Source: Acidimicrobiia bacterium (GTDB lineage Bacteria > Actinomycetota > Acidimicrobiia > Spongiisociales > ZC4RG35). From it: DNA of 47,876 nucleotides. The notes below the pieces were generated by a model, which saw only the letters and a program-made list of their open reading frames with translations, was not told where the DNA came from and did not search any database. Position numbers and translations under genes: made by a program. The stretch is from contig JBGTGL010000076.1 in NCBI GenBank assembly GCA_041746755.1, forward strand, positions 1 to 47,876, read 5' to 3'. Positions 1,174 through 43,007 of the stretch are shown piece after piece (the stretch's first letter is position 1; the number at the start of each line of letters is the position of its first letter).

Positions 1174-1569
1174 GTGAAAGGCCCGAGCCTCAAACCAAAG
1201 GTGGTGATCAGCACGGGAGTTGGTCTCCTCGCCCTTGTTGTTTTGCTCTACTCAACGGGGCCCAACCCGGAAACAGAATTCTCCGGAAGCGTCCGCCGGA
1301 TGGGTGGTCCCTGTCTCACTCTGGAGCAATGGGGGCTGCTCGGGTGGACCACCATCGGTCAGACCACCTCGATGACTCAGGCGACAACTGGCAAATGGCA
1401 GGTTCCCTCTGATGAGCTCGGATGCGATGATGTCGAGGACAGCCTGATTCTTGTGAGATTGCCGATTGGTTCAAGGCCAGACTCATATCGAATTTGCGGG
1501 GTCGCCGACGACACGGCGTGTCTGACTCTGCAGCTGGTGCCATTCGAGTCCACCGGCCCCGGACCGTAA
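1174..1569 (+). CDS. hypothetical protein with N-terminal hydrophobic anchor/signal and several Cys
   Basis: Track ORF 131 aa with GTG start preceded by GAAGGGA. Hydrophobic stretch VVISTGVGLLALVVLLY. No recognisable family. Confidence 0.35.
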   Translation: MKGPSLKPKVVISTGVGLLALVVLLYSTGPNPETEFSGSVRRMGGPCLTLEQWGLLGWTTIGQTTSMTQATTGKWQVPSDELGCDDVEDSLILVRLPIGSRPDSYRICGVADDTACLTLQLVPFESTGPGP

Positions 1570-1579
1570 CGACGCGTCG

Positions 1580-2365
1580 CTAAACGCTGATCCTCTCTGG
1601 TCCCGTATAGAGGGTGAAGCTGCCATCTCTCAGAAATCCGATGAGAGTCATGCCGAACTCCTCGGCCAGGTCGACGGCAAGACTTGATGCTGCCGAAACG
1701 CCGCACACCAGTGAAATCCCGGCGACCGCTGCCTTTTGGACTATTTCGAAAGATACCCTTCCCGATACGAGGAGCCCCAAGGGTGGCAGCGGCCATGTTC
1801 TCCTGGAAAGAGCCCCCACCAACTTGTCGGTCGCGTTGTGGCGGCCCACGACCTCGCGCGCATCGACTCTTCGGCCATCTCGATCGAAAGCGGCGGCGGC
1901 ATGGAGGCCTCCAGTGGTGCGGAAGGCCGACTGCATCTCCAACAACAATGGTGGAAGTGACAGAATCGTTCCGGCATCGACCACGGGCCCTCTCGGTGGG
2001 TATGCACCTGCAACCCGGATGGCGTCGATCGACGCTTTGCCACAAACCCCACAAGAGGAAGTCGAATAGAAGTTTCGCTGAAAGAGACCGGGATCGACTT
2101 CGACCCCATCGACGAGACGGACATCCCACCTTCCCTCACTGAGATCTTCGATAGCAGCCACCTCCTCCGGGCCATCGATGATCCCCTCGGTAATCGCAAA
2201 ACCCAGGATCAGGTCGGCGTCATCGCCGGGCGTCCTCATCAGCACCGCTAAAGGTGTTCCCGCCAGCCGAATCTCGAGTGGCTCCTCGACGACCAGGTGG
2301 TCGTCGGCAGCTTTCATTCCGTCGCGGACGCGAAAAACTCGACGTTGGGTGGTCGCCTCATCCAT
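1580..2365 (-). CDS. fdhD: formate dehydrogenase accessory sulfurtransferase FdhD
   Basis: 261 aa with FdhD-type motif SSCGVCGKASID. It is the last gene of the FDH operon and overlaps the upstream gene by 8 nt. Confidence 0.85.
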   Translation of the reverse strand: MDEATTQRRVFRVRDGMKAADDHLVVEEPLEIRLAGTPLAVLMRTPGDDADLILGFAITEGIIDGPEEVAAIEDLSEGRWDVRLVDGVEVDPGLFQRNFYSTSSCGVCGKASIDAIRVAGAYPPRGPVVDAGTILSLPPLLLEMQSAFRTTGGLHAAAAFDRDGRRVDAREVVGRHNATDKLVGALSRRTWPLPPLGLLVSGRVSFEIVQKAAVAGISLVCGVSAASSLAVDLAEEFGMTLIGFLRDGSFTLYTGPERISV

Positions 2366-3281
2366 CGTTGCCGCCGTTCACATACGCCCACCCGAACCGG
2401 CCCTTGATACACAGGTTGCCCAAGGTCACATCGTGGTCGTGAGGTGAGGTCACGTTGACGATCTCCCCGTCCTGGGTGTGGATATCGAGATTGCAACCAA
2501 CACCACAATATGAGCACACGGTGCGGGTGACTTCTTGCCGTTCCTCGGCCCACGCTCCAGTCTCGCGCATGTCGTATTCGACTTTGCCCATCAATGCCCC
2601 TGTCGGGCAGACAGCAATACAGTTCCCGCAATAGACACATGCAGAATCAGGCAAGGCGACGTCGAATTCGGTAGAAATGTGGGCATCGAAGCCGCGGCCA
2701 GCAACCGCTATGGCGAAGGTGTTCTGATGCTCTACACCGCAAGCATCGACACATCGATAGCACAGGATGCAACGTGCGTAATCACGCACGTAGAGATCAT
2801 CTTCGATTTTCGCAGGCTCGGCAACACACTCCGCCAATCCAAGGGCACCCAGCGAGTGATGGCCCGGTTCGGGGGGAAGGCGCGAAGATGGAGGCGACTT
2901 GGGCCCGAAACGATCCGGATCTGCACCAACAACATCGATCCACCCGGCCACATCGGCCCCCGACCTATCGAGCTCACTGGCAGATCCCAGTAGTTCCATC
3001 ACCAAACGCCGGCTGTGTTCGGCCCTCGTCGAATTGGTGTTGATCACCATCCCTTCCTCGAGCACTCGCGAACAAGAAGGGATCAGAGTGCGGGAGCCTT
3101 CGACCTCGACCACACAGACGCGGCAAGCGCTGGCGGCGGTCATGGTCGGGCCAAAGCAAAGTGTGGGGATTTCTACACCTGCGTTTCGGCACGCATCGAG
3201 GACGGTGCTGCCATCGGGGATGGCTATCGCAAGCCCATCGACGGTCGCACTCACACTTCGTGAGGCAAATTCGGTAGTCAT
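2358..3281 (-). CDS. formate dehydrogenase Fe-S module (N-terminal part of an FdsA/NuoG-like alpha subunit, encoded as a separate gene)
   Basis: Likely start is ATG at 3281 (MTTEFASRSV), overlapping the upstream stop as ATGA. 2Fe-2S-type Cys (CRNAG..LCFG..ACRVC). Two ferredoxin 4Fe-4S motifs (CILCYRCVDAC, CVYCGNCIAVCP). MopB N-terminal cluster CSYCGVGCNLD...LCIKG, then the protein ends. Confidence 0.8.
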   Translation of the reverse strand: MTTEFASRSVSATVDGLAIAIPDGSTVLDACRNAGVEIPTLCFGPTMTAASACRVCVVEVEGSRTLIPSCSRVLEEGMVINTNSTRAEHSRRLVMELLGSASELDRSGADVAGWIDVVGADPDRFGPKSPPSSRLPPEPGHHSLGALGLAECVAEPAKIEDDLYVRDYARCILCYRCVDACGVEHQNTFAIAVAGRGFDAHISTEFDVALPDSACVYCGNCIAVCPTGALMGKVEYDMRETGAWAEERQEVTRTVCSYCGVGCNLDIHTQDGEIVNVTSPHDHDVTLGNLCIKGRFGWAYVNGGNDG

Positions 3282-5059
3282 TGCGACACCCCGGCGAGTC
3301 CCAGACGGATCGCTGACTGGATCGCCGAGGCCGCTGTCTGTCCTAGCCCACAAATCGAAGCGTCGGTCATCACCTTCGCCAGATCATCGAGACGAGCGCG
3401 TTCATCCTGAAGAGTCCCCAGCGTCCGCCCTTCGCTAATCCGGTGTAAGGCCTCCTCCTGGCGCACCGTCCCGATGCGACAGGGAACGCATTGTCCACAC
3501 GACTCGTCACGGAAAAACCGAGCAATGCGCTGCAATACCCGAACGAAATCGGTGGTCTCGTCAAAAACGACAATGGCACCCGACCCCAATGTGGTGTTCG
3601 CCTCGCGCACTCCCTCGAAGCTGAGCGGAATGGCTCCCATGCCTTCCGTAACGAAACTCCCCGCCGCTCCTCCCATGAGAACTGCACGTGTACCGCCGGC
3701 TCCAGATAGTTCGAGGAGTTCCCCCAGGGTGGTGCCGAAGGGGACCTCAAACACCCCGGGTCGGGCGACATCACCAGAAACACAGAACAACTTCGTCCCC
3801 TTCGACTGCTCTGTTCCGATGGAAGCAAAGGCCTCGGCCCCGATACTCAGAACTTCGAGGACGGCGACCAGGGTTTCGATGTTGTTGATCCCGGTGGGTT
3901 TCCCGAACAGCCCACTCTGGGTTGGAAATGGCGGCTTCTGACGGGGCTCACCCCGATAACCCTCGATCGAAGCGAACAACGCCGTCTCCTCGCCACAGAT
4001 GTAGGCGCCGGCACCCCTTCGCACCTCGAGGTCGAAGGCGAAACCGGCTCCTGCCACGTCATTGCCCAACAGGCCTGCCTCATATGCCTGTTCGATGGCG
4101 CCAACAAGTCGCCTTTCGGCCGTTGGATATTCACCCCGCACATAGATGTATCCGTGGTCGGCACCGGCTACGTACCCATAAACGGTCATCGCCTCGACCA
4201 CCGCAAACGGATCACCCTCCATCAAGACCCGGTCCTTGAAAGTCCCCGGCTCGGATTCATCGCCGTTGGCAACCACATATTTCTCGGTGCCCGAAGCATC
4301 TCTCAGGCCTCGCCACTTGGTGCCGATCGGGAAGGCGGCCCCACCCCTTCCCCTCAATCCGGAAGCCTCGAGTTCTGTGATCGTCGCTTCGAAACCCAAC
4401 TCCAGGGCCCTGCTCAAACCCAGGTAGCCTCCCGCATCTTGATAGGCAACGAGACTGGCCGGGTTGACCTCTCCGATCCGACGCAGCAGTCGCAACTCGG
4501 ATCGGTCCTGATGAATCACCGCACCGGGCAGGTCACCAATCGGGACCTCCCCGAGCCCTCGTGGCCCCACCGGGGCATCGGGCGTACACCCTTGCCCGGC
4601 AGCCTGATACATCACAGCCGGAGCCCGATCACACTGACCGAGACAGGGGCTCAGTTCGAATTCGAATGAGTGCTGCTCGGCTTGGGCCAAAACTTCGTCT
4701 GCCGCACGAGCGCAGACGATGTCGTCACAAACGTGTACCACCGGTTTTGCGCTCCGACCGGCGCGAAACAAGGAGTAGAAAGTGGCAACGCCGTATACCT
4801 CGGCGGGCGGCACCGTGAGCCGTTCCGAGATGTAGCCAAGAGCCCCCTGGGTGATACTGCCGGTGGCGTCCTGCACGGCATGTAGCGCCGGAAGCAGCAG
4901 GTGACGCCGGGCGCGAGCGGCTTGACCCCCGTAGGCGACATGGCCGTCCAAACGAGAGAATTCCCCACCGGTCCAGCCCGACTCGGGGGGACCGAGGACA
5001 AGGTCAACCGCCGATCGCTCCACCTCGTTCGGTTGGACGAGGAGTGAGCGGATGTCCAT
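3278..5059 (-). CDS. NuoE-like/NuoF-like fusion protein (FdsG-FdsB type NAD/FMN diaphorase subunit)
   Basis: Track ORF 3278..5488. The realistic start is ATG at 5059 (MDIRSLLVQ), which shares one nt with the upstream stop (TGATG). NuoE-type Cys VCDDIVC...SPCLGQC. NuoF motifs GLRGRGGAAFPIGTKW and ESCGQCVPCRIGT. Confidence 0.85.
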   Translation of the reverse strand: MDIRSLLVQPNEVERSAVDLVLGPPESGWTGGEFSRLDGHVAYGGQAARARRHLLLPALHAVQDATGSITQGALGYISERLTVPPAEVYGVATFYSLFRAGRSAKPVVHVCDDIVCARAADEVLAQAEQHSFEFELSPCLGQCDRAPAVMYQAAGQGCTPDAPVGPRGLGEVPIGDLPGAVIHQDRSELRLLRRIGEVNPASLVAYQDAGGYLGLSRALELGFEATITELEASGLRGRGGAAFPIGTKWRGLRDASGTEKYVVANGDESEPGTFKDRVLMEGDPFAVVEAMTVYGYVAGADHGYIYVRGEYPTAERRLVGAIEQAYEAGLLGNDVAGAGFAFDLEVRRGAGAYICGEETALFASIEGYRGEPRQKPPFPTQSGLFGKPTGINNIETLVAVLEVLSIGAEAFASIGTEQSKGTKLFCVSGDVARPGVFEVPFGTTLGELLELSGAGGTRAVLMGGAAGSFVTEGMGAIPLSFEGVREANTTLGSGAIVVFDETTDFVRVLQRIARFFRDESCGQCVPCRIGTVRQEEALHRISEGRTLGTLQDERARLDDLAKVMTDASICGLGQTAASAIQSAIRLGLAGVSQ

Positions 5060-6942
5060 CAGGAGACCGCCTCGACGCGCACAGCTGTTGCTTTGAACTC
5101 CGCGGTCCCAGACTTTGGATCCCACGCGTCGATCGTCAACACGTTGACATCGGTGTCGTCGGGAAAATGGACCGACATAAAGGCCAGCCCGGGGCGTAGT
5201 GACCGCTCGATCCGAACCGGAGCTTCGATACTTCCGCGTCGCGATGTCACCCTCACCCGCTGCCCCTCGGCCACACCAAGCGACACTCCGTCTTCCGGGG
5301 AAATATCGAGCACGCCATGAATGCGTCGCGGCGCCGAATACCGCCCGCTTTGTACTCCGGTGTTGTAGGAATCGAGACGACGCCCGGTGGTGAGCCGCAT
5401 GGGGAATTCCTCGGTGAGAGTGTCTACGGGAGCCGCCCACTCCACGGCGTGAAACGGCGCTGGCTCGCCCCCGATCGGACGCTCCCACAATCTGGCATGG
5501 AGATAGAGGGAACCGGGATGGGACTCATCAGGGCAGGGCCATTGCAGACCACCAGATTCTGCCAAGCGTTCGTATGACATTCCTCCATGCATGGGAGATA
5601 CCTGCCGGAGTTCATCCCACGCCTCCTCGGCAGACGGTGTCTGCCAGCTATGGCCCATTGCCCTGGCGAGCAGGGATAACAACTCGATGTCACCCTCAGC
5701 ATCACCCGGCGGATCAATTGCCTTCCGAACCCGTTGCACGCGACGCTCGCTCGAAGTGAAGGTGCCCTCGCACTCGCCCCACCCGGCCGCAGGAAGGACT
5801 ACGTCGGCCAACTCGGCGGTGGCCGTCAAGAAGATGTCCTGGACCACCATGAAGTCGAGATTCTCCAGCCTCCGTCTCATGTTTTTGCTGTCGGCTTCCG
5901 ACTGCAGCGGATTCTCACCGAGAATAAAAAGTGCTGTCAGGTCCCCCTCATCCATCGCCTCATGCATCTCGCTGATGTGCTTCCCTGCGCGGGACGGAAT
6001 CTCACTCCCCCAAACTGCTTCAAACTGAGCGCGGACCCGAGTGTCCTCGACATCTTGAAAACCGGGCAGCTTGTTGGGAAGGGCGCCCATATCTCCCCCG
6101 CCCTGGACATTGTTCTGGCCCCGGATCGGGACGAGGCCAGAGCCATAGCGGCCAACGTGGCCGGTTAGAAGTGCCAGATTGATCAAGGCGAGGACATTGT
6201 CAGTGGCGTTGTGGTGTTCGGTGATACCAAGCGTCCAACACAGTTGGGCAGTTTCGGCTGATCCATACTCATGAGCGAGTTGGCGAATCGCGTCGGCGGG
6301 GACCCGCGTAATTTCTTCGGCCCGACTCAAGGTGTATTTGTCAACGCACGCGGCGTAGTCTTCAAACCCGGTAGTGGCTGCTTCGATGAACTCCCTATCG
6401 ACCATCCGTTGTTCGATGATTTCACGACCTACCGCGTTGGCGAGAGCTATGTCGGACCCGACGTCTATCCCCAACCAAACATCAGCCCACTCTGCCGTAC
6501 CGGTACGCCGGGGATCGACGGCGAACATTCGGGCGCCGTTGTGAATCCCCTTGAGAGCATGCTGAAAGAAGATGGGATGAGCGTCGCGGGCGTTCGACCC
6601 CCACATGACGATGAGATCAGTCTGTTCGATTTCCTGATACGAACTGGTTCCACCACCCGCTCCAAACACAGCCGCCAGACCGGCGACCGAAGGAGCGTGT
6701 CAGGTGCGGTTGCAGCTATCTATGTTGTTGCTCCCCATCACCACACGGGCGAACTTCTGAGCCAAATAGTTGGTCTCATTGGTCGCCTTGGAGCAGCTGA
6801 GTAACCCGAATGCATCCCCGCGATGGGGAGCTAGACCCTCAGCAGCAACGGCAACCGCCCGATCCATCGAAGTTGGACGCAGGACGCCATCTTGACGAAT
6901 CAGCGGACGATCGAGGCGTGCGTAGTTGCGTTTCATCATCAC
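5059..6942 (-). CDS. fdhA: formate dehydrogenase molybdopterin catalytic subunit containing selenocysteine (UGA at 6700..6702 decoded as Sec)
   Basis: Track ORFs 6700..6942 and 5059..6669 are in the same frame, separated only by TGA plus 10 sense codons. The joined sequence reads NNIDSCNRT-U-HAPSVAGLAAVFG, like E. coli FdhF NNVDCCARVUHGPSVAGL. RGQNNVQGGGDMGALPN also present. Strong SD GGAAGGAGG, so the true start is probably ATG at 6939 or 6936. Confidence 0.85.
6669..6689 (-). promoter_or_regulatory. SECIS-like hairpin downstream of the Sec UGA
   Basis: mRNA sense CGGUCGCC-GGUCU-GGCGGCUG, starting 11 nt after the UGA. The 8-bp stem includes G-U pairs. The apical GGUCU matches the E. coli fdhF SECIS apex (GCAGGUCUGC). 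Confidence 0.6.
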
Positions 6943-7095
6943 CTCCTTCCTGAGCGTTGCATCGGAGAGTACAACGCCTCAGGCGAGGCGGCAGGGAGGA
7001 GAACCCTCACCCGGCGACGCTGACAACCCTGGGTTCGGAGCGTCGCCACCCGACGCTCACAGCCCACAGAACCCGGTTTGGTCAGACGCCCGGTG

Positions 7096-8616
7096 TTAGC
7101 CGAACTCGAGGCCCTGGGCGAGAGGAAGATCGTCTCCGTAGTTGATGGTCGTGGTCTGCCGGCGCATGTACGCCTTCCAGGCGTCGGAACCGGCTTCGCG
7201 CCCCCCGCCGGTTTCCTTTTCACCGCCGAAGGCGCCCCCAATTTCCGCGCCTGAAGTTCCGATGTTGACGTTGGCGATTCCGCAGTCAGATCCAACCGCG
7301 CTGAGGAACTTCTCGGCGTTGCGCATCGACTCGGTGAATATCGCTGAGGAAAGGCCCTGAGTGACACCGTTCTGGATTTCGATCGCCTCGTCGAGAGTTT
7401 CGAACTCCGTGACCCAGAGAATCGGAGCAAAAGTCTCCTGTTGGGTGATCGAGGCGCCCTTGGGCACCACCGCAATGGTCGGCTCGACGAAGAAACCGGG
7501 ACGATCGATGCGATTTCCACCAGTCACAACCCTGGCACCCTGTTCCCGCCCGATCTCCAGTGCGGTCATCATCTGTTCGATGGCTTGCTCTCCGGCCACC
7601 GGACCCATCAGTGTGCCAGCTTCTAGGGGATCGCCAATCGGGATGGTCTTGTAGGCCTCTGCGAGTCGGTCAATCATCTTGTCAGCGATGGCCCGATGAA
7701 CCAGAAGCCTGCGAAGTGATGTGCACCGTTGGCCGGCGGTACCGACCGCTGAGAACAGGGCAGCCCGTACTGCGAGGTCGAGGTCAGCATCATCCATCAC
7801 AATGACCGCGTTGTTTCCTCCGAGTTCGAGAATGCTCCGTCCCATTCGTTGCGCAACTGCGGGCCCGACGATCCGCCCCATGTTGCATGACCCGGTTGCA
7901 GAGATGAGTGGGAGGCGGGTGTCGTGATTCATCGCGTTGCCGACTGTCTTCCCATCGCCAACCACGAGATTGAACAGGCCCTCGAACCCTGAACCTTCCA
8001 TGACCTGGGCTGCGATCTTGGTAACAGCGATGGCTGTGAGCGGAGTCCGTTCCGACGGTTTCCAGACCACGGTGTCACCACAGACGGCTGCGATAGCCGC
8101 ATTCCAAGACCAGACGGCCACCGGGAAATTGAAAGCCGAAATCACGCCGACCGGGCCTAATGGATGCCAATGCTCATACATTCTGTGATCGGGGCGCTCC
8201 GAAGCCATGGTGTTGCCGTAAAGCTGACGGCTGAGACCTACGGCGAAATCACAGATGTCCACCATCTCCTGGACTTCCCCGATACCTTCGGGGAGGATCT
8301 TGCCCATCTCCAAGGTGACCAGAGCACCAAGGGTCTCCTCGTTGGCCCGGAGGGCATCGCCGAGCTTTCGGATGTATTCGCCTCGCTTGGGAGCTGGAAG
8401 CCTGCGCCACTTCAGGAAGGTCTCGGTGGAATTGGCGACCACCTTCTCATAGTCTCCAACCGAACCCATCGCCACGGAGGCGAGGACCTCCCCGGTGGTC
8501 GGGTTGACGACATCGATTGATTCGCCAGTCGCCGGTAGCCACTCGCCGGCAAAGACGCCTGAGTTGACTTCCTCGATTCCCAACTCTCCAAAGATTTGAT
8601 CTTTAGTCATCGTCAT
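7096..8616 (-). CDS. aldehyde dehydrogenase, ALDH7/piperideine-6-carboxylate (aminoadipate semialdehyde) dehydrogenase-like
   Basis: 506 aa. GEVQEMVDICDFAVGLSRQLYG (antiquitin-like), LELGGNNA (catalytic Glu), GTAGQRCTSLRR (catalytic Cys). Confidence 0.8.
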   Translation of the reverse strand: MTMTKDQIFGELGIEEVNSGVFAGEWLPATGESIDVVNPTTGEVLASVAMGSVGDYEKVVANSTETFLKWRRLPAPKRGEYIRKLGDALRANEETLGALVTLEMGKILPEGIGEVQEMVDICDFAVGLSRQLYGNTMASERPDHRMYEHWHPLGPVGVISAFNFPVAVWSWNAAIAAVCGDTVVWKPSERTPLTAIAVTKIAAQVMEGSGFEGLFNLVVGDGKTVGNAMNHDTRLPLISATGSCNMGRIVGPAVAQRMGRSILELGGNNAVIVMDDADLDLAVRAALFSAVGTAGQRCTSLRRLLVHRAIADKMIDRLAEAYKTIPIGDPLEAGTLMGPVAGEQAIEQMMTALEIGREQGARVVTGGNRIDRPGFFVEPTIAVVPKGASITQQETFAPILWVTEFETLDEAIEIQNGVTQGLSSAIFTESMRNAEKFLSAVGSDCGIANVNIGTSGAEIGGAFGGEKETGGGREAGSDAWKAYMRRQTTTINYGDDLPLAQGLEFG

Positions 8617-8993
8617 CGCGCAGCCACCACTTCCATCTCTACCAGGAACCCTCCCGGCAAGGCGCCAGCCTGGAAAGTGGACCGAGCTGGCGGTTCATCG
8701 TCGAAATAGGCTCCATATGCCTCGTTGACCTCGGCGAAAGAACCGATATCGGCAAGGAAAATGTTGGTTTTGACAATGTCGGAGTAGGACAGCCCGAGGT
8801 CGCCCAGGATGCTTCCGAGGTTTTGCATCACCCGGTGCGCTTGCGCCGTCACATCATCGGGTTCTCGTTCGCCGGTTGAAGGGTTGATCGCAACCTGGCC
8901 CGATACGAAAACGAATCCATTCGCCTCGGTGGCGACGGAGTAAGGACCCATCGGCTTCGGTGCCGACGGAGTGTTTGGGACGGTCTTGGGCAC
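8613..8993 (-). CDS. ridA: RidA/YjgF family reactive-intermediate deaminase
   Basis: 126 aa with typical RidA layout (PKPMGPYS...FVSGQVA...TNIFL...ARSTFQAGALP...VEMEVVA). 4-nt overlap with the downstream ALDH gene. Confidence 0.8.
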   Translation of the reverse strand: MPKTVPNTPSAPKPMGPYSVATEANGFVFVSGQVAINPSTGEREPDDVTAQAHRVMQNLGSILGDLGLSYSDIVKTNIFLADIGSFAEVNEAYGAYFDDEPPARSTFQAGALPGGFLVEMEVVAAR

Positions 8994-9055
8994 GAAAACT
9001 CCTTGTTGGGGGCGCGCAAATGCGGTTGGCGAAGTCTATCGGGTCGGGACGGGGT

Positions 9056-9418
9056 CTAGGAGAAGGAGTTGCCGCAGCCGCAGGAGCGAGTGACATTTGG
9101 ATTCTCGATGGCGAATCCAGCACCCATCAGTCCGTCCTTGTAATCGAGAACTGATCCCTTCACCATCTCGGCACTCTCTGGGTCGACAACAACCCTGATA
9201 TCGCCTGCTGCCTCGACGATATCGACCTCGTCGATCTCGCTGTCGAAGTACATCTCGTAGGAAAAGCCAGAGCATCCACCGGGGCGAACCGCCATCCGCA
9301 ATGCCAGACTGGTGTCTCCCTCAGCTGCGATGAGTTCGCCGATCTTGAGGGCGGCGTTGTCGGTGACAGTGACGACCTTCTGGGGCTGATTTGATTTGAT
9401 GCTTAAAACTTGTGTCAT
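9056..9418 (-). CDS. erpA: HesB/IscA/ErpA family iron-sulfur cluster insertion protein
   Basis: Track ORF 9056..9724. The family-length protein starts at ATG 9418 (MTQVLSIK). GGCSGFSYEM and C-terminal CGCGNSFS motifs. Confidence 0.85.
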   Translation of the reverse strand: MTQVLSIKSNQPQKVVTVTDNAALKIGELIAAEGDTSLALRMAVRPGGCSGFSYEMYFDSEIDEVDIVEAAGDIRVVVDPESAEMVKGSVLDYKDGLMGAGFAIENPNVTRSCGCGNSFS

Positions 9419-9496
9419 GATCTTGACCTCATTGTAACCGGCGTCCACCCTATTCAACCACCCCGGTAGGACGAATCTTCCATCTACCCTGAGAGT

Positions 9497-10636
9497 GTGG
9501 TCACAAGAGAGACCGTCCTCAAGGCACTCGAGGGAGTGCGTGATCCCGAATTGGGCGGCAACGTCGTTGAACTCGGGATGATCAGTGATGTCACAATCAG
9601 GGGAGGCGATGTGGAGATCGGCCTCGCGCTGACCGTCGCCGAGTGTCCGTTGCGCAACCAGATCGAGAATGACACCAGTCGCCGGGTTGCCAATCTTCCT
9701 GGAGTCGACGACGTAGTGGTTCACACCACAGCAATGACCAAGAAACAGCGGGCAAATCTCATGTCGGTAGCGCGGAGTCAGGCCCGAGCCAAGGCCGACC
9801 CCACGCAGGTTTCCCCGACAACTCGCGTCATCGCCGTTGGGTCCGGCAAGGGTGGCGTTGGCAAATCCTCGGTTTCGGTAAATGTCGCCGTTGCCATGGC
9901 CGCAATGGGTTTCCGGGTGGGGCTGCTCGATGCCGACATCTGGGGTTTCTCAGTTCCTCGCATGATGGGGATCAGTGGGCGGCTCGAAGCAAGCGATCAG
10001 ACCAAGTTGATCGAGCCGATACAGGCCCACGGCGTCAAGGTTGTCTCCACAGGACTGATAGTCGAGACCGAGGAAACCGCACTGATGTGGCGCGGGTTGA
10101 TGCTCTCCAAGGCCTTGGAGCAATTTCTGCAACAGGTCAATTGGGGAGAACTCGACTATCTGATCATCGATTTGCCGCCGGGGACCGGAGATGTGCAAAT
10201 GGCGCTGAGCAGGATGCTGCCTCAAGCTGAGATGGCCGTGGTGACCACACCGCAGCGGGCGGCACAGAAGGTGGCGGTGCGGGTGGCCGATATGGCTCGA
10301 CGCTCTCACATGCCCGTAGTCGGCGTTATCGAAAATATGTCCAGCTTCGACTGCTCCTGTGGCGAAATCCACCACCTATTCGGTCAGGGTGGCGGCGAAG
10401 AGTTGGCTTCGGACCTGGGGGTGCCTCTGGTTGCGAGTATTCCCCTCGACGTCCATGTAGTCCCCGGCGGGGACGAGGGGATGCCTGTTGTCCTCGGTGA
10501 CCCCGGATCGGCCGGCGCCGTCGCATTCACCAAGACGGCCGAGACTTTGGTTGCGCTGGTCCCGCCAGCAGACATGGAAACCTGCACCGGCCGGATCGCC
10601 AAGATGCTCGCCGAGTTGGACGCCCAACCGGTTTAG
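9497..10636 (+). CDS. mrp: Mrp/ApbC/NBP35 family Fe-S cluster carrier ATPase with N-terminal DUF59/MIP18 domain
   Basis: 379 aa. DPELGGNVVELGMI (DUF59), deviant Walker A GSGKGGVGKSS, CxxC (FDCSCGE). Confidence 0.9.
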   Translation: MVTRETVLKALEGVRDPELGGNVVELGMISDVTIRGGDVEIGLALTVAECPLRNQIENDTSRRVANLPGVDDVVVHTTAMTKKQRANLMSVARSQARAKADPTQVSPTTRVIAVGSGKGGVGKSSVSVNVAVAMAAMGFRVGLLDADIWGFSVPRMMGISGRLEASDQTKLIEPIQAHGVKVVSTGLIVETEETALMWRGLMLSKALEQFLQQVNWGELDYLIIDLPPGTGDVQMALSRMLPQAEMAVVTTPQRAAQKVAVRVADMARRSHMPVVGVIENMSSFDCSCGEIHHLFGQGGGEELASDLGVPLVASIPLDVHVVPGGDEGMPVVLGDPGSAGAVAFTKTAETLVALVPPADMETCTGRIAKMLAELDAQPV

Positions 10637-12683: not shown

Positions 12684-13456
12684 GGGGTTTGGGGGGGCTT
12701 TAAGACGATGTCGTCCTTCTCTAAGGCTATACGACCCTCCTCAACTAGCAAGACCAGATGTGCCTGCACTGATCTCGCCGCCAATGGGTATAGGGATACA
12801 TCGACATCGGAATAGACGGCCTCAACGACTTCCCAAGCGGTCGTCGATCCTCCTTGGATCGATTGGAAAATCTGCTCGTGACGCTGCATCCGATGAGCTA
12901 GATACCAATCGATGACGGCATCGGGATCGTCCATTTCGTCTCCGTGGCCGGGCAAGAGCCTTTCCAGGCCGGTCGATCGAAGTTTCTCGAGAGATTCCAG
13001 GTAAGGGCCCATCGCTTCCACCATTACGGAAGACCCTCCCATGATGTGATCGCCTGTAAATAACACGTCTCCAATCCGAAAGCAGAGGTGATCATCGGAG
13101 TGGCCGGGGGTGTGGACGACTTTCATCTCAGCGTCTCCAACCTTGATCCGGGAACCGTCCTCGAGAGTCATATCCGGTTGGAACTCTGGGCCCGGCCCGA
13201 ATCCGAACGAGGCAACACCCAAGTTCTTCGCTAGAGGGTTGGCCAAAGGAGCGTGGTCTTCGTGGGTATGGGTTACCAGGACCCCGACAACCGTCCGGCC
13301 CGAAACCTGTCTGGCAATTTCTGATTCATGCGCAGCATCGACTGGTCCCGGATCGATCACGACCACCGAGCCACTTCCATCGTCGAGGAGCCACGTGTTG
13401 GTTCCCGGCCCGGTAAAGGGCCCGGGGTTGTTGGCCAGAATCCGGTCAATCTGCAT
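12680..13456 (-). CDS. MBL-fold metallo-hydrolase
   Basis: 258 aa with THTHEDH (HxHxDH) and HTPGHSDDH motifs. 4-nt overlap with the M23 gene. Confidence 0.8.
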
Positions 13457-14165
13457 AATCGCCCCGGTATCTCACCAGCAGTTCGCGGTCCTTCTCGATC
13501 GGTTCGATGATGGTCATGCCATCGGTACCACGCGCCGCAGCTTCGGCCTCGGAAACACTGCTGCGTCTCGCCAACCACCGCAGATGGGAAATCGTTGGAA
13601 GGATCATCGACCACTCATCACGCTGATACTTCTCGAGTGCCTTCTCCGGAACGATCCAGCAGTAGTCCACCAACTCATTGGAGTCGAGGACGATCTCTGG
13701 ATCGCCCTCGATCGGGACCAGATAAAAGCGGGTATCAAATCGTTTCGGAGCAATCTTCGGTGTCAGCCAGCGAGAGACGAGGGTCATCCGATCCAACCCC
13801 CAATCATCGATGGCGTCAACGGCTTCCAGGAGTTCGGCGCCACGCAGTCGGGGCGATGGCCGGGAGCCGGAGGTGGTAATCGCCAAACCCACCTCTTCGG
13901 CAGTCTCGCGAAGTCCAGCAATCCGGAAATGTCCGTCAATATCAGGGCGCCCAGACTCAGCGTCACAAGCCTCGACAGCCCCACCTGGGAAGACCATCAA
14001 ACCGCCGAAGAATCCACGAGCTGGTCGCTGCACCATCAGAACTTCGAGGAGATCGCCCTGGCGAATTATGAGCACACTCGACGCCGGGCGCGCGAGGACA
14101 GTTTTCTCCGACATCGCAAGCATCCTATGAAGACCACCCTTCATCCCCGAAGTCGGATATCCCAA
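13446..14165 (-). CDS. NUDIX hydrolase family protein (start uncertain, possibly Met18 at 14114)
   Basis: Nudix-box-like GGAVEA...RETAEEVGL. The ORF start lies only 19 nt from the divergent selA start, so an internal Met (MSEKTVLARP) is plausible. Confidence 0.65.
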   Translation of the reverse strand: MGYPTSGMKGGLHRMLAMSEKTVLARPASSVLIIRQGDLLEVLMVQRPARGFFGGLMVFPGGAVEACDAESGRPDIDGHFRIAGLRETAEEVGLAITTSGSRPSPRLRGAELLEAVDAIDDWGLDRMTLVSRWLTPKIAPKRFDTRFYLVPIEGDPEIVLDSNELVDYCWIVPEKALEKYQRDEWSMILPTISHLRWLARRSSVSEAEAAARGTDGMTIIEPIEKDRELLVRYRGDYAD

Positions 14166-14184
14166 AACCTGCGAAACTCGGAGG

Positions 14185-15531
14185 ATGAGCGAATCTGATT
14201 CCGGTTTCCGGAGCCTTCCATCTGTTGATGCGCTCGCTGCGACGATCGATGCTCCCGAGATGGGTCACGGCCAGATCGTGGAGATTGCGAGGACCGCGAT
14301 TGACCTCGCCCGCGCCCGGCTCAAGGACAATGACAACGTCGACCCCAGGGACCTAGCCGAGGAGTTGCTCGCGGCGTCACGTTCCCGGCGGCAACACGAG
14401 GTGATCAACGCAACCGGCGTACTCCTCCACACCAATCTGGGCCGTGCCCCGCTTGCCCAACACGTTGTCGAAGCAGCCTCATTGGCCGCAAGCGCCTACA
14501 CCAACACCGAATTCGACTTGTTGACCGGCGAGCGTGGCCACCGCGGTGCCAACACCACCGAACTCCTGAAGCTCCTCACCGGGGCTGAAGACGCCCTCGT
14601 CGTCAACAACAACGCTGCGGCAGTACTGCTTGCCCTGACTGCCATCGCGGGAACTCGGGGCGTTCCGGTTTCACGAAGTGAGTTGGTCGAGATAGGTGGC
14701 TCATACCGCCTCCCCGACGTGATCGGTTCCAGCGGTGCCAGGCTGATCGAGGTGGGTACCACCAACAAGACGAGGCTAAGCGACTACGAGACCGCACTCC
14801 AGATTCACGACTGCGCGATGGTGCTCAAGGTTCATCAGGCCAATTTCAAGATTCAGGGATTTACCGCATCGGTGGGTGCCGAGGAACTGGCACGATTGTG
14901 TCGGGCTCGCCATGTCCCGCTCGTCTACGACGTCGGCTCCGGTCTCCTCGATTCGGGGACGCCTTGGCTACCGCATCGGCCGGCGTGGCTGAGAGATGAG
15001 CCGGGCATCCGACAGGCGCTAGACGCGGGGGCAGATCTAGCAATGTTCAGCGGCGACAAGCTTCTCGGCGGCCCACAGGCCGGCATCGTCGTTGGCGATG
15101 CCCGTCTCATCTCAATGATGCGTGACCATCCTCTGAGAAGAGCCCTCCGGGTGGACAGTGCAACGGACGCAGCTCTGGCATCAACCCTCGACTCGTACGC
15201 TCGAAGGGACGCCGGCAGCGAGATCCCGTTCTGGAAAATGGTTTCCCTGTCGTACGAAGAGCTCAAGGGGCGCTCCGATCAGGTCGCGTCCCGCATTAAT
15301 GCATCCGTCGAAGAAGGCTTTTCGATGGTTGGCGCCGGGAGCGCACCGGGAGCCCAGATCGCTAGCCCTGTGATAAGACTCCCCGGCGGCCAACATTTGT
15401 TTGCTCAGCTCCTCAGTGGCCCTATTCCCGTTGTCGCCCGACGGGACCGGGGCGACCTGCTCATCGACTTGAGGGCGGTCGACCCTTCTCGCGACGAAAC
15501 GACAGCACAGGCAATCTTGAAATGCCTCTAG
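14185..15531 (+). CDS. selA: L-seryl-tRNA(Sec) selenium transferase SelA
   Basis: 448 aa. N-terminal LPSVDAL motif and PLP-lysine motif FSGDKLLGGPQAG, identical to the motif I recall for E. coli SelA. Confidence 0.9.
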   Translation: MSESDSGFRSLPSVDALAATIDAPEMGHGQIVEIARTAIDLARARLKDNDNVDPRDLAEELLAASRSRRQHEVINATGVLLHTNLGRAPLAQHVVEAASLAASAYTNTEFDLLTGERGHRGANTTELLKLLTGAEDALVVNNNAAAVLLALTAIAGTRGVPVSRSELVEIGGSYRLPDVIGSSGARLIEVGTTNKTRLSDYETALQIHDCAMVLKVHQANFKIQGFTASVGAEELARLCRARHVPLVYDVGSGLLDSGTPWLPHRPAWLRDEPGIRQALDAGADLAMFSGDKLLGGPQAGIVVGDARLISMMRDHPLRRALRVDSATDAALASTLDSYARRDAGSEIPFWKMVSLSYEELKGRSDQVASRINASVEEGFSMVGAGSAPGAQIASPVIRLPGGQHLFAQLLSGPIPVVARRDRGDLLIDLRAVDPSRDETTAQAILKCL

Positions 15532-17297
15532 TCGGCACTGCCGGACATGTCGACCACGGCAAGTCCACGCTTGTTCAAGCATTGACAGGGCGCGACCCTG
15601 ATCGATGGGCGGAGGAGAAGCGGCGTGGCCTGACAATCGATCTCGGATTTGCCTGGGCCGACCTGGGCCACGGAGTGGTGGTGTCGTTCGTAGATGTCCC
15701 CGGACATGAGCGTTACCTCAAGAACATGCTGGCTGGTGTGGAATCTGTAGAGATAGCTTTGTTGGTGGTTGCAGCCAACGAAGGTTGGAAGCCGCAGACC
15801 GAGGAGCATCTTGCGGTCCTCGACCTTCTCGAAGTGAGGAACGGTGTTGTCGCCCTTACTAAAACCGACATCGTCGATCATGACTTGGCCGAGTTGGAAG
15901 CACTCGAGGCAGAGGACAAACTGGTCGGCACCAGTCTCGAGGGGTCGGCCGTCATCGCGGTTTCGGCGGTGACAGGTCAAGGTCTTGAAGCTCTACGCGC
16001 TGAGCTGGCACGACTTGCCTCCCGCACGCCGATAGAAACCGGGCGTCCACGCCTCTGGATAGATCGCGTTTTCAGCGTCTCCGGCGCCGGGACCGTCGTA
16101 ACAGGGTCGCTCCTCGGTGGGAAGATTTCGGTCGGGGATGACCTCGAGCTGTACCCGGGCGGCAAAGCGCGCGTCCGAACTATTCAGAGCCACGAGGAAG
16201 ACGTCACCACCGGCGAACCAGGCCGTAGAACAGCCCTCGGACTCGCTGGTATCGACACCGGGGCTATCGAGCGGGGAACCATGATTGGCTACCCGGGCGA
16301 ATGGAACTTAAGCGACCGGTTCAGCGCGAGTGTCCGCCTGGCCCGGTATATCGACGAATTACCTGACCGCGGCGCCTATCAGATTCACATCGGCACCCTC
16401 GCCCGAAACGTGACGATCGAGGCTCGGGAGGATGATCGCGCAATCCTTCGCCTGACCGAACCGGTGCCGGTGGCAATGGGAGATCGGTTCATTATCCGCG
16501 ACAGTGGTAGGCGGATGGTGGCCGCGGGCGGGCGCGTCCTTGACCCGCATCCGGGACGAAGGAAAAGGGCATTAGCCGAATCTCGAGACTTGAGGGCTGA
16601 AGGGACTGCAGACGAGAAAGCAACTCAACTGCTTGGTTTGCGGGGTTCAGCCACCGTGGTCGACCTGGAACGGGACTCCGGCGGTGGACGGCCCTCGGCC
16701 GGGATAGAAATCGCCGGAACGGTGATCACCGATATTCAGATGGAGGAATTCCAGCAAATCGCAGTCCATCTCGTGGAAGAGGAACACTCGACGAAGCCGC
16801 TGAATCCGGGTTTGCCCTTGGCGACTCTCAGCACACGGCTCAAAGTGCCTGCAGAGATTGGCGAAGCGGTGGTGAAGCGGACAGGGTCTTTGGAGTTGCG
16901 CGGGCCCGACGTTGCGCTGGTCAGTCACAACCCGACCCTGTCCCCACAACTGGAAGAAGAGTGGGCAGCTGTCAGATCGAAACTGCAACGTGGCCTGGCT
17001 GTCCCCACGACGAACGAACTCGGTCTCGACGTCGAGACCATTCATCTCCTCCTCCGCAACCGGGACCTGGTCAGGATTAGCGATGACCTGGTATTTCTAC
17101 CCGGTCAGCTCGACGAGATCGTGACGGCCGTTGCAGAACTAAACCCCCCATTTTCGGTGGGCGATTTCAAAGAAAAGCTCGGACTGTCCCGAAAGTATGC
17201 AATGCCACTTCTGGAGTGGCTGGACAACAACAGCTACACGATCCGGCGAGGTGATCAGAGGGTTTTCGGTGGCCGACTACCTCGAAACGACCAATGA
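15522..17297 (+). CDS. selB: selenocysteine-specific translation elongation factor SelB
   Basis: 591 aa. GTPase motifs GTAGHVDHGKSTL, DVPGHERY, TKTD. Long C-terminal extension consistent with winged-helix mRNA-binding domains. 10-nt overlap with selA. Confidence 0.9.
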   Translation: MPLVGTAGHVDHGKSTLVQALTGRDPDRWAEEKRRGLTIDLGFAWADLGHGVVVSFVDVPGHERYLKNMLAGVESVEIALLVVAANEGWKPQTEEHLAVLDLLEVRNGVVALTKTDIVDHDLAELEALEAEDKLVGTSLEGSAVIAVSAVTGQGLEALRAELARLASRTPIETGRPRLWIDRVFSVSGAGTVVTGSLLGGKISVGDDLELYPGGKARVRTIQSHEEDVTTGEPGRRTALGLAGIDTGAIERGTMIGYPGEWNLSDRFSASVRLARYIDELPDRGAYQIHIGTLARNVTIEAREDDRAILRLTEPVPVAMGDRFIIRDSGRRMVAAGGRVLDPHPGRRKRALAESRDLRAEGTADEKATQLLGLRGSATVVDLERDSGGGRPSAGIEIAGTVITDIQMEEFQQIAVHLVEEEHSTKPLNPGLPLATLSTRLKVPAEIGEAVVKRTGSLELRGPDVALVSHNPTLSPQLEEEWAAVRSKLQRGLAVPTTNELGLDVETIHLLLRNRDLVRISDDLVFLPGQLDEIVTAVAELNPPFSVGDFKEKLGLSRKYAMPLLEWLDNNSYTIRRGDQRVFGGRLPRNDQ

Positions 17298-17525
17298 CTT
17301 TCGCTCGCCCTCGGTCATACCGCCCCAGATGCCGAATGGCTCCCGGATACTCAAAGCGTGACTGGAACACGGTTCCTGAACCGGACATACCCCGCAGATT
17401 GCTTTGGCCTTGATCTCGCGCCTCTCCCGATCGTCTTTACGCTCGAATGTTGACGGTGGGAAAAACAAATACGCATGATTCCCACGGCACAGTGCCCGCA
17501 ATGTCCACTCGTCCTTCTGAGACAC
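17277..17525 (-). CDS. whiB: WhiB family transcriptional regulator (Fe-S)
   Basis: 82 aa with four Cys (CRGN...C..CGVCPVQEPC) and GIWGG turn. GTG start preceded by GGGAGGAAGA. 3' end overlaps the selB 3' end by 21 nt. Confidence 0.85.
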   Translation of the reverse strand: MSQKDEWTLRALCRGNHAYLFFPPSTFERKDDRERREIKAKAICGVCPVQEPCSSHALSIREPFGIWGGMTEGERKSLVVSR

Positions 17526-17612
17526 TCTTCCTCCCTAGGTCAGTGAAGCGACATCGTCGAAACTAATCGGATGAGGCCCGCGGCACAAGGGAAAATCTGG
17601 AAGATCAGAAAA

Positions 17613-18887
17613 TCAGTTTTCGCGAGCTGCGTCCGCACCGGCCTCGATCGACAGGAAAAGTCCGTCCACTCCGGTAACTACTACGGGCGAGCCGTCTCCG
17701 ATCCCCGATTCGCGATGAGCTGTGGCCCTCCAACGTGCCCCGCCCACCTCAACCGTCCCGTCGGGGTTGAAATCGCCAATGGCAACGCCGCTTCGTCCGA
17801 TAAGCGAATCACGGCCGATCGTTTGGGTGGAGAGTCGGCTTCGCTGCACCGTTGGCATCGCCAGAAGGAAGAAGAACAGCGCGGCCAGCACCGAGAGCAG
17901 CACGAGCCACCAGCGTGGATCGATCTGGCCGGATCCTTCTATGTAGAACAGACCGGCTATCTGAAGGCCAATGGCTCCGAGAATGGTTAGTGCGAGTACT
18001 CCGCCTCGCTGATGAGCTGTTGTAAGGAGAATCCACCCAGAAATCGCGAGGGCAAGCGCCCAGGGCCGGACCGGGAGATTGACGATTCCCCAACTAGCCA
18101 ACCAGAGAGAAATGGCGGCCACCCCCGCTGCCACCCCGGGACCGAGTGCGTAGAACTCGAAGGTCACCAGAGAGAGGCCCACTACCAAGAAGAAGAAAGC
18201 GGCTTCCGGCGTCGCAGCCAACCTGAAGAATCTCGTCGTAAGAGGTGGCTTTCGGAAGGTCACCGTCTTCAGCGTGACTCCCTCCACGCCCTCATTCTCG
18301 AACGGCCGGAGTGTCTCCACCACCACAGTGCCGTTCTGGGTTGGCATGGAAGTGCCGTCGAGGTCCTGGAGGTATTGCCGGATCGACGGTTGAAGCGGAA
18401 GGTCGGTCGTCTCGAACAGAACAGCTTCGCCGTCCGCCGAAGCTGACGGAGGATCACCGGCGATTGTCGGGCTTTCCTTTCCGATGAAAGTACCGGGGGC
18501 ACCGGCGGTCACCGGTGAAACCCTCACCAGGGAAGACATCCCACCAAAAGCTGAGGCTGGTTGGGGTCCCAGCCACACTGCCACCGGTAGCGGAGGATTG
18601 ATTACCAGATCGTTCAGCCGATCGTAGAGATCCTCATCGAGCACTGCCCGTGAGTTGATTTGAAGCACCGCCATTTCCTGGCCGGTGGCCGCTGCCAATT
18701 CGATGGACTCGACCATAAAGGAGAGCGCGGAAGAATCGAGCGGACCGCTGACGTCGATCACGTCTATACCGCCACCCTCAGACGATGAGCATGCCGACAC
18801 GGCGAGAACCAAAATTGCCAAAGATGTCAGGGTCCGACGCACGAAACGCAGGTTAGGAAGCCAGTCCCGCCTACTCCATTTCGACAA
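17613..18887 (-). CDS. NfeD family membrane-bound ClpP-class protease-like protein
   Basis: 424 aa. Lipobox-like LAVSAC, N-terminal ClpP/crotonase-like region, central hydrophobic block, C-terminal NfeD OB-fold-like segment (GVAIGDFNPDGTVEVGGARWRATA...VVVTGVDGLFLSIE). Confidence 0.65.
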   Translation of the reverse strand: MSKWSRRDWLPNLRFVRRTLTSLAILVLAVSACSSSEGGGIDVIDVSGPLDSSALSFMVESIELAAATGQEMAVLQINSRAVLDEDLYDRLNDLVINPPLPVAVWLGPQPASAFGGMSSLVRVSPVTAGAPGTFIGKESPTIAGDPPSASADGEAVLFETTDLPLQPSIRQYLQDLDGTSMPTQNGTVVVETLRPFENEGVEGVTLKTVTFRKPPLTTRFFRLAATPEAAFFFLVVGLSLVTFEFYALGPGVAAGVAAISLWLASWGIVNLPVRPWALALAISGWILLTTAHQRGGVLALTILGAIGLQIAGLFYIEGSGQIDPRWWLVLLSVLAALFFFLLAMPTVQRSRLSTQTIGRDSLIGRSGVAIGDFNPDGTVEVGGARWRATAHRESGIGDGSPVVVTGVDGLFLSIEAGADAAREN

Positions 18888-21062: not shown

Positions 21063-21680
21063 ATGAGAGACAACGCGACTCATTACACGAGAGGCGCCCA
21101 CGTCAAGACTTCCGAAGGCGTGGAAGTAGGCACCATTGACCGCATTGTTTTCGACGCAAAAGCCCAGAAAATCACGCATATCATCGTGAAAAAGGGGCTC
21201 CTGCTCACCACGGACCGGGTGATCCCGGTTGATGCATTGGAACCCTTCGGCGACGGGGTTCGCGTTGGCGCCGACGCAGATCCCACAACGTTTCCGCAGT
21301 TCGAACAGTCGGATTACGTCCTCGACGCTCAGACCGACTTCTATGTAGCCAACCCGAGCATCGCAATCGGAGCGTACGGACCGATCGGTGCACCCAATGC
21401 CGAGCTGAAAAGGCACCGGGACCGAAACATCCCGGAGGATTCCATCGTCCTTCACGCCGACTCAGACGTCATCGCCTCCGACGGCGAAAAAGTCGGCCGT
21501 GTTAAAGAGGTGGTGGCCGATACCTCTGACGACCGCGCATTCCAACTCATAGTCGCCAGTGGCGTTGCCGATCGTGTGAAGCGTGCGATCCCGGCAAACC
21601 TGGTCATCTCTATCACCGAAGGCGAGATCCACCTCAGTATTGGCTCCGTCGACTTCGACGAGTACGCAACCCTCGAATGA
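21063..21680 (+). CDS. PRC-barrel domain protein (two repeats)
   Basis: 205 aa. Two similar segments (V.TSEGVEVGTIDRIVFD...ITHIIV and VIASDGEKVGRVKEVVAD...) typical of PRC barrels. Confidence 0.6.
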   Translation: MRDNATHYTRGAHVKTSEGVEVGTIDRIVFDAKAQKITHIIVKKGLLLTTDRVIPVDALEPFGDGVRVGADADPTTFPQFEQSDYVLDAQTDFYVANPSIAIGAYGPIGAPNAELKRHRDRNIPEDSIVLHADSDVIASDGEKVGRVKEVVADTSDDRAFQLIVASGVADRVKRAIPANLVISITEGEIHLSIGSVDFDEYATLE

Positions 21681-21761
21681 TTTCGCACAATTTGTTGTAG
21701 ACCTTCGGCCGAACAGGAATAAACTGTGGGGGCGGGAAGGTAGAGGCTGAAAGGGATAAAC

Positions 21762-22432: not shown

Positions 22433-22477
22433 GAAACCGGAGGGCCGCCAAATGTTTGGCGACCCTCTTGTTCTGAG

Positions 22478-24696: not shown

Positions 24697-24782
24697 ATCT
24701 GCACAGTTTGGAAGGTTTTGGCCTCCAATACGAACATTGACCTGTCGGTTGAACCCGGACCGCCTCTAGAGTCACCCTCTCC

Positions 24783-25562: not shown

Positions 25563-25599
25563 CGCTCCGATCGGCGAAGATCTGTGTTGTAAACAGATC

Positions 25600-42954: not shown

Positions 42955-43007
42955 GGCAAACCCGTCGCCGGTTGGAATACTCTTAGTCACGTAAGGAAGG
43001 AAACGAA

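Follow-up and report, generated by a model that had tools for sequence, protein, structure and literature searches.

The 47,876-nucleotide (nt) contig JBGTGL010000076.1 of the Acidimicrobiia bacterium assembly GCA_041746755.1, hereafter the window, carries on its minus strand an operon for a formate dehydrogenase (FDH) whose catalytic-subunit gene is crossed by an in-frame TGA. An original prediction had proposed that this codon is read as selenocysteine (Sec) and joins two open reading frames (ORFs), 6700..6942 and 5059..6669, lying 10 sense codons apart. Inspection of the sequence confirmed this arrangement. ORF 6700..6942 is terminated by TGA 6700-6702, past which the frame stays open through 10 codons (HAPSVAGLAA) to GTG 6669 and then down to the stop codon at 5059-5061, yielding a product of 626 amino acids (aa). 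The read-through peptide was the one proposed, ...SNNIDSCNRT*HAPSVAGLAAVFGAGGG, that is, MGSNNIDSCNRT upstream and HAPSVAGLAAVFGAGGG downstream of the UGA, and the tryptic peptide expected to span the Sec codon would be T-U-HAPSVAGLAAVFGAGGGTSSYQEIEQTDLIVMWGSNAR. We set the start at ATG 6939, with ATG 6936 and GTG 6942 as alternatives. An AGGAGG stands before ATG 6939/6936 and, therefore, the N-terminus of the catalytic subunit is genuine, with a translation start of its own.

The read-through protein contains the Pfam domains Molybdopterin (PF00384) and Molydop_binding (PF01568). In a phmmer search against PDB sequences, its top match was 7qv7_S (1e-150), the FdhF subunit of the hydrogen-dependent CO2 reductase complex, followed by Escherichia coli FdhH (1aa6, 2.6e-142) and then by more FDHs. 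The UGA had been predicted to sit at the Sec position of FdhF and to be followed by the conserved His. As a matter of fact, in the alignment with 1aa6 (..nnvdccarvxhgpsvagl..) it falls on the 'x', which is Sec140, the conserved His comes next, and the Arg of PxRGQNNVQG is kept as well. The active-site residues of the alpha subunit of an FDH with a molybdenum or tungsten bis(pyranopterin guanine dinucleotide) cofactor (Mo/W-bisPGD), namely U-H and PIRGQNNVQG, are thus present and aligned to FdhH.

The same column was informative in closer homologues. Database orthologues called at full length (633-661 aa, 63-65% identity) came from cultured Actinomycetes of the genera Nonomuraea, Streptomyces, Thermopolyspora, Kutzneria, Saccharopolyspora and others, and read NNVDSCNRT-C-HAPSVAGL. 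In 8 of these full-length orthologues (63-65% identity, among P0084-P0119), the UGA column is occupied by the catalytic cysteine (Cys), within the motif NNVDSCNRTCHAPSVAGL. Comparison of the TGA column with the Sec/Cys position of homologues, the first check called for in the original prediction, thus came out positive. The Cys orthologues are named 'NAD-dependent formate dehydrogenase catalytic subunit' in their source databases, so annotators have recognized the family. The features of the locus are listed in Table 1.

Table 1. Coordinates of the FDH operon, the recoding signals, the Sec machinery and the tRNA gene in the window
Feature	Position	Strand	Description and evidence
Catalytic subunit coding sequence, Mo/W-bisPGD FDH	5059..6939	-	626 aa, U at residue 80; translation
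UGA codon, predicted Sec	6700..6702	-	active-site ligand position, conserved His next; aligned to Sec140 / Cys
Shine-Dalgarno AGGAGG	6942..6947	-	upstream of ATG 6939/6936; read from sequence
Predicted selenocysteine insertion sequence (SECIS) element	6658..6697	-	single-sequence fold, invariant loop/core, covariation, synonymous-entropy minimum, sub-threshold in-register Rfam
NuoE-NuoF fusion, diaphorase subunit	3278..5059	-	593 aa; PF01257, PF01512, PF10531, PF10589; NCBIfam nuoF/nuoE
NuoG-N-terminal-like iron-sulfur (Fe-S) subunit	2358..3281	-	307 aa from ATG 3281; PF13510, PF22117, PF12838, PF04879
fdhD, FDH accessory sulfurtransferase	1580..2365	-	PF02634; TIGR00129 160 bits > cutoff 141
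selA, L-seryl-tRNA(Sec) selenium transferase	14185..15531	+	PF03841; TIGR00474 430 bits vs cutoff 268
selB, Sec-specific elongation factor	15522..17297	+	PF00009, PF25461, PF09107; TIGR00475 342 bits vs cutoff 242
tRNA-Pro (CGG)	22477-22551	-	sole tRNA in window

Conservation of the UGA codon in relatives

In-frame TGA codons between long open stretches are frequent in this 59% G+C window: a crude scan with thresholds of our own returned 44 such cases, only part of which were inspected individually. The candidates inspected (upstream of selA, in the aldehyde dehydrogenase gene and in murJ) overlie genes in other frames or strands and had no homology support. The in-frame TGA of the FDH gene is real but, by itself, without significance.

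We then turned to comparative data. A genome scan with one genome per GTDB species led us to keep 80 loci out of ~573 relatives, mostly from metagenome-assembled genomes labelled Acidimicrobiia, 67-88% identical to the window protein and with tblastn matches that cross the stop. The Sec column was TGA in 80/80 loci, each from a distinct GTDB species, and none of the 80 had further stops inside the catalytic gene. Mean amino-acid identity to the window was 66% over the 76 residues before the UGA and 75% after it. The invariance of TGA and the conservation of the frame on both sides exclude a pseudogene, two independent genes and a sequencing error.

The original prediction had anticipated that gene callers would deliver a truncated protein, and indeed the ~83 closest database relatives (73-97% identity) are called at ~515-552 aa, which is ~85% of the query, with the same truncation point. 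Such calls are what a true stop would produce, either in a pseudogene or between an 80-aa fragment and a 536-aa protein initiated at GTG 6669; moreover, UGA is the usual stop codon in this genome, and neither selC nor selD turned up in the window. We nevertheless consider termination at this TGA extremely unlikely. The truncated protein would be deprived of the metal ligand, of the catalytic His and of ~90 N-terminal residues of the Molybdopterin domain, and no Shine-Dalgarno sequence precedes GTG 6669. Unlike what is seen in pseudogenes, the 76 upstream codons have stayed in frame and similar over 80 species. Last, a stop would account neither for the invariance of the codon nor for the constraint and covariation of the downstream RNA described below.

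A sequencing or assembly error was also considered. Cys orthologues with an identical surrounding peptide use TGT or TGC, and a single wrong base would do to turn either codon into TGA. This is next to negligible as an explanation, as the same TGA was found in 80 independently assembled genomes from many studies, and as the Sec-specific hairpin features go together with TGA and are not seen in the genes with TGT or TGC. Likewise, we rejected the idea that UGA is a sense codon genome-wide. UGA terminates the FDH gene itself, the NuoE-NuoF fusion gene, the Fe-S subunit gene and selB; being a normal stop for these four genes, it must be recoded locally.

Incidentally, we noticed that in four of the related loci (L020, L023, L033 and L038) the frame before the Sec codon was open over 349-660 codons, versus 79-170 in most relatives. 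This hints at another gene, either fused in frame to the catalytic subunit or abutting it.

A hairpin under selection past the UGA

The original prediction had placed a 21-nt hairpin, CGGUCGCC-GGUCU-GGCGGCUG, shortly past the UGA. We found it at 6689..6669, its first base being the 11th nt past the UGA, and both frozen synonymous sites and compensatory changes speak for it. In the following, positions are numbered from the U of the UGA. The fold of the window sequence comprises two helices. The lower one, which was missing from the earlier description, pairs 6692-6697 with 6658-6663; its outermost pair, C6-G45, is specific to the window, and the part conserved among relatives is made of positions 7-11 with 40-44. 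The upper one pairs 6682-6687 with 6671-6676 and extends to 6689/6669 in the window sequence. This upper stem is real, but its extent had been overestimated: G15-U33 is paired in just 17% of relatives, and the conserved stem has 6 bp (positions 16-21 with 27-32) and not 8. The apical GGUCU, at 6677-6681, has its first base 18 nt past the UGA and its center at ~20 nt. C21 and U26 are unable to pair, and the apical loop is therefore of 5 nt.

Because the hairpin overlaps a conserved peptide, we measured synonymous variation. Third-position entropy averaged 1.51 bit over the 178 conserved four-fold-degenerate codons of the gene. It was <0.2 bit in just 4/178 of these sites, namely +5 Val, +7 Gly, +8 Leu and +9 Ala, that is, in the upper stem and the loop. 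Across 81 sequences, the loop G22-G-U-C-U26 was invariant (GGUCU in 81/81) and the core G16UCGCC21 / G27GCGRC32 near-invariant.

Pairing was examined in the same way. Pair 18-30 was C-G in 79 sequences and U-A in 2, both changes being synonymous; pair 20-28 was C-G in 72, U-G in 7 and U-A in 2; and pair 17-31 was U-G in 58 and U-A in 23. In the lower helix, pair 9-42, both partners of which are wobble positions, was U-A in 59, C-G in 7, U-G in 7 and G-C in 2 (distinct rows). Double (compensatory) changes occurred in four hairpin pairs. Over the whole two-helix structure, 94.3% of cells were standard pairs, versus 34-63% when the partners were slid by 1-3 columns. The observed covariation was matched by 0/500 column shuffles, and RNAalifold recovered both helices independently. 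As a control, we looked at four Cys-type orthologues that encode HAPSVAGL(A/S)A. They differ mutually at every frozen wobble site and use GGC for Gly, so the GGUCU loop is absent from them (n=4).

At gathering thresholds, Rfam returned no SECIS in the window. In a permissive Rfam scan of the whole window, the SECIS_3 match was the second-best hit, the best being tRNA-Pro, and the sub-threshold SECIS_3 and SECIS_2 alignments were both in register, the UGA and the loop of each model falling on those of the window. Searches of the bSECISearch type look for a stem-loop just past the UGA with a G-containing apical loop ~16-37 nt away. The hairpin of the window has these properties and, in addition, shows selection at the RNA level. 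It is outside the curated families RF01989 and RF01988, though it would probably work like their members.

Subunit architecture and selenocysteine machinery

The catalytic-subunit gene is followed on the minus strand by genes for a NuoE-NuoF fusion, for an Fe-S subunit resembling the N-terminus of NuoG and for FdhD. The NuoE-NuoF ATG lies in TGATG and the Fe-S subunit ATG in ATGA, while fdhD has an 8-nt overlap with the Fe-S gene; these junctions indicate translational coupling of the four genes. A promoter and terminator scan of the region 1300-9200 found nothing exceeding shuffled expectation. The fusion protein contains a [2Fe-2S] thioredoxin-like domain, a domain binding flavin mononucleotide (FMN) and NAD(H), an SLBB domain and a [4Fe-4S] domain. 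Its PDB matches are NuoF-type subunits, including the FDH beta chains 6vw7_B, 6tg9_B and 7e5z_B. The Fe-S subunit has one [2Fe-2S] site, two ferredoxin-type [4Fe-4S] sites and a C-terminal Molybdop_Fe4S4 domain, which carries the FS0 cluster (PF04879, aa 274-326 of 331 in the ORF).

The catalytic (Mo) subunit begins at about FdhF residue 61 and is devoid of the Molybdop_Fe4S4 domain. The family model TIGR01591 is indeed split over two proteins, with positions 1-49 on the C-terminus of the Fe-S subunit and 52-672 on the Mo subunit. The latter scored 653.1 bits, below the cutoff of 666.25, which is narrowly missed because the FS0 domain sits on another protein. Residues 9-301 of the Fe-S subunit are collinear with FdsA 24-303 (6tg9_A, 9wxb_B), and residues 9-622 of the Mo subunit match 9wxb_B 309-931. 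The two subunits tile one FdsA chain, which we read as a clean gene fission with permuted order. ORF 6939..7520 (193 aa), directly upstream of the catalytic gene, might have carried the missing Fe-S domain but was rejected: it has no Pfam match and overlaps the aldehyde dehydrogenase gene. Among the PDB matches, there was no solved structure with a split alpha subunit and FS0 in trans.

The order Mo subunit, NuoE-NuoF fusion, Fe-S subunit ending in FS0 and FdhD was also found in Thermopolyspora flexuosa, in Streptomyces sp. 840.1 and on a contig from uncultured Actinomycetes. In Kutzneria buriramensis, the three structural genes are likewise present, but an adjacent fdhD is absent. The occurrence of the split operon in other Actinomycetes makes it a property of the family and not an assembly artefact. 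A second peculiarity concerns the Fe-S subunit. The His-ligated cluster motif HxxxCxxCx5C, of the NuoG N5 / FdsA type, was absent in 68/68 Fe-S subunits that could be extracted from the loci, and a Cys-free linker, …RHSRKxVLELLASSxDLS…, stands in its place at ~residues 90-165. With this motif absent, the electron-transfer chain would be one cluster shorter than that of FdsA.

The enzyme had been called fdhF-like. This holds for its catalytic domains, but the whole is another type of FDH. NuoF-like, NuoE-like and NuoG-like modules are encoded with the catalytic subunit, as in NAD(P)-linked NuoEFG-type FDHs, while the marks of FdhF (FDH-H) are missing, FS0 not being in the chain and the neighbors being NuoE-NuoF, NuoG-like and FdhD proteins. 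The most fitting description is that of a presumably NAD(P)-linked FDH of the NuoEFG type, the alpha subunit of which is split, and not that of an FdhF-type monomer.

As predicted, selA and selB are both in the window, on the plus strand, and both scored over the cutoffs of their families (Table 1). selB overlaps selA by 10 nt and lies 8.6 kb from the FDH gene. SelB gave a full-length match to ribosome-bound E. coli SelB (5lzb_z, residues 3-581), and its C-terminus is a winged-helix mRNA-binding domain (SelB-wing_3). We also noted a divergent NUDIX gene that precedes selA with a gap of ~20 nt (regions 13446-14185, 17297-17613).

The presence of these genes bears on the possibility that the UGA is read through with another residue, either Cys or Ser via tRNA(Sec) or Trp or Cys via a near-cognate tRNA, the hairpin acting as a general stimulator of read-through. 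Under selenium scarcity, tRNA(Sec) that is mis-acylated can bring Ser or Cys to a UGA, and no selD to supply selenophosphate was found in the window. We regard this possibility as highly unlikely. selA is intact and adjoins selB, and the only known role of its product is to convert Ser-tRNA(Sec) to Sec-tRNA(Sec). Furthermore, TGY, the codon of its sister lineages, would suffice for a lineage in need of Cys only, which could then spare itself a hairpin and two dedicated genes. Altogether, UGA 6700-6702 is very probably decoded as selenocysteine.

Other genes of the window were noted as well. An aldehyde dehydrogenase gene (7096-8616) and a RidA/L-PSP gene (8613-8993) lie directly upstream of the FDH operon on the minus strand, with a gap of ~150 nt; they could conceivably be co-transcribed with it or linked to it in function, for instance in turning an aldehyde into acid plus formate. 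Near the operon are also a HesB/IscA-like protein gene (9056-9724, minus strand) and a gene for a P-loop Fe-S carrier of the Mrp/NUBPL type (9497-10636, plus strand), which form an Fe-S biosynthesis pair. Given the overlap of the two ORF calls, at least one start codon has probably been set wrongly. ORFs of 168-534 aa with no Pfam match were found at 24687-25628, 35678-36859, 42983-43522 and 21452-21958 on the minus strand and at 40544-42148 on the plus strand. The one of 534 aa follows an ABC ATPase gene and may encode its permease.

Proposed decoding and comparison with known systems

The following model may be put forward. The ribosome on the FDH catalytic-subunit mRNA would arrive at UGA 6700-6702 and meet, a few nt further on, a hairpin predicted to be built of two helices, the lower separated by an internal loop from the G+C-rich upper one of 6 bp, which is capped by the apical GGUCU. 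The C-terminal winged-helix domain of SelB would bind this hairpin and, by homology to E. coli, SelB would bring Sec-tRNA(Sec) to the UGA. In the mature enzyme, Sec80, with His81 next to it and the RGQ Arg conserved, would ligate Mo or W and oxidize formate to CO2, FdhD being the protein expected to sulfurate the cofactor. Electrons would exit via FS0, a [4Fe-4S] cluster that the separate Fe-S subunit provides in trans with its C-terminus, travel along the ferredoxin-type clusters of that subunit to the FMN of NuoE-NuoF and finally reach NAD(P)+. The reaction may proceed in reverse as well. We infer SelB binding, selenium content, electron path and NAD specificity by homology.

Several observations weigh against the Sec reading or limit its reach. 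Folding and SECIS searches, both suggested in the original prediction, had a mixed outcome: the two-helix fold and the in-register Rfam alignments were obtained, but the folding energy of the 66-nt region was unexceptional when compared with shuffled sequences (z = -1.74), and the Rfam scores stayed below gathering thresholds, with 24.5 bits versus 63 for RF01989 (SECIS_3) and 16.9 bits versus 70 for RF01988 (SECIS_2). The compensatory changes stem from a few clades and represent perhaps 5-6 independent events, not 14, and the Cys-type control consists of four sequences only. A tRNA-Sec (selC) was found neither in the 47.9-kb window, with ARAGORN and with permissive Rfam searches near selAB and over the whole window, nor, with ARAGORN, at up to 6 kb from the operon in 60 related loci of 14 kb. 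Similarly, no selD was found, Pfam recognizing no AIRS-domain protein among the 40 ORFs of the window. We assumed that selC and selD are located elsewhere in the genome. Finally, the selenium content of the enzyme, its NAD specificity and its electron acceptor are attributed by homology. Given the 44 cases of an in-frame TGA in the window and the z value, the case for something beyond chance therefore rests on the Sec/Cys column and on the comparative data.

The Sec-dependent FDH has long been established as a bacterial selenoprotein, and the recoding described here is canonical; likewise, Sec use in Actinomycetota is already documented for mycobacterial enzymes of the FDH-O type. The FDH of the window does not overturn current understanding. 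What is less ordinary is a Sec form spread across a class-level lineage that is mostly uncultured and uniformly truncated in databases. The gene is listed as a truncated ~536-aa 'molybdopterin oxidoreductase' in dozens of protein clusters of public databases and in 80 or more genomes of Acidimicrobiia type, counted at species level. Owing to this truncation and to the missed Fdh-alpha cutoff, automated Sec-aware annotation is likely to go on failing, and formate oxidation and selenium dependence will be underestimated in metabolic reconstructions of these Actinomycetota, which are abundant in soil and sea. A split alpha subunit with FS0 in trans is also unusual for a Mo/W-bisPGD enzyme. In the limited set of literature searched, which is no proof of novelty, we found no description of a split actinobacterial NAD-linked FDH or of Sec use in Acidimicrobiia. 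Tentatively, and with slightly less than even confidence, we suggest that the Acidimicrobiia enzyme and its Cys orthologues might form a biochemically undescribed subclass of NAD-linked FDH (FS0 in trans, His-ligated cluster absent, gene order permuted), within which a presumably aerobic lineage would have switched from Cys to Sec with a minimal, invariant SECIS.

Compared with E. coli FdhF, the window protein has homologous Molybdopterin and Molydop_binding domains, the same Sec-His column and the same RGQ arginine motif. It differs by its start and by the lack of FS0, which E. coli FdhF carries in its own chain, and by its gene neighbors, which are NuoE/F/G-like and not hydrogenase-3 genes. 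Likeness extends to the fdhF SECIS (RF01988): in both elements, the loop GGU coincides with one and the same Gly codon of the ...SVAGL... stretch, at equal distance to the UGA. The original prediction had stated that the apical GGUCU is the same in both. The string does occur in the SECIS_2 consensus, and the two-helix architecture is common to both elements, but in E. coli-type elements the last U pairs and leaves a GGUC tetraloop. In the window, the register of the upper stem is shifted by one, the loop is one of 5 nt and a bulged U17 is lacking.

The FdsGBA(D) enzymes of Rhodobacter capsulatus and Cupriavidus necator (6tg9, 6vw7) and Fdh1AB of Methylobacterium extorquens (7vw6/7e5z) have the same set of modules as the window enzyme: a NuoG-like Fe-S N-terminus, FS0, Mo/W-bisPGD, NuoF-like and NuoE-like parts, and an adjacent fdhD. 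In M. extorquens Fdh1, a NuoE-NuoF fusion makes up the beta subunit too. In contrast to these enzymes, the window alpha subunit is split in two exactly at the border of FS0 and the Mo domains, the genes follow each other in a permuted order (Mo subunit, flavoprotein, Fe-S subunit), and the His-ligated [4Fe-4S] motif of NuoG and FdsA is lacking throughout the family. Moreover, as far as is known, the characterized proteobacterial NAD-linked FDHs use Cys, whereas the window clade would use Sec.

Mycobacteria with a selenoprotein FDH, which are Actinomycetota too, offer a parallel. Their FDH is their predicted sole selenoprotein and is split at the UGA by annotation pipelines, and its SECIS is a stem-loop with bulges that resembles the E. 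coli element (PMC13449736). Yet, the mycobacterial enzyme is of the ~1064-aa FDH-O/N (fdoG/fdnG) type, a different FDH family, and selC lies directly upstream of selA-selB in these genomes (PMC13449736). In the window, selA is preceded by the NUDIX gene instead, and no tRNA-Sec was found.

Close counterparts are the Cys-type orthologues of cultured Actinomycetes, for example those of T. flexuosa (P0097), Streptomyces sp. 840.1 (P0119) and K. buriramensis (P0100), with 63-65% full-length identity. They share the identical active-site peptide and the split architecture, and the operon order with fdhD was kept in 3/4 loci. They differ by TGT or TGC in place of TGA, by the absence of the GGUCU loop and by variable wobble sites. 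With an active-site peptide and an operon that are otherwise identical, the Sec and Cys clades form a natural pair for studying the benefit of selenium to NAD-linked FDH.

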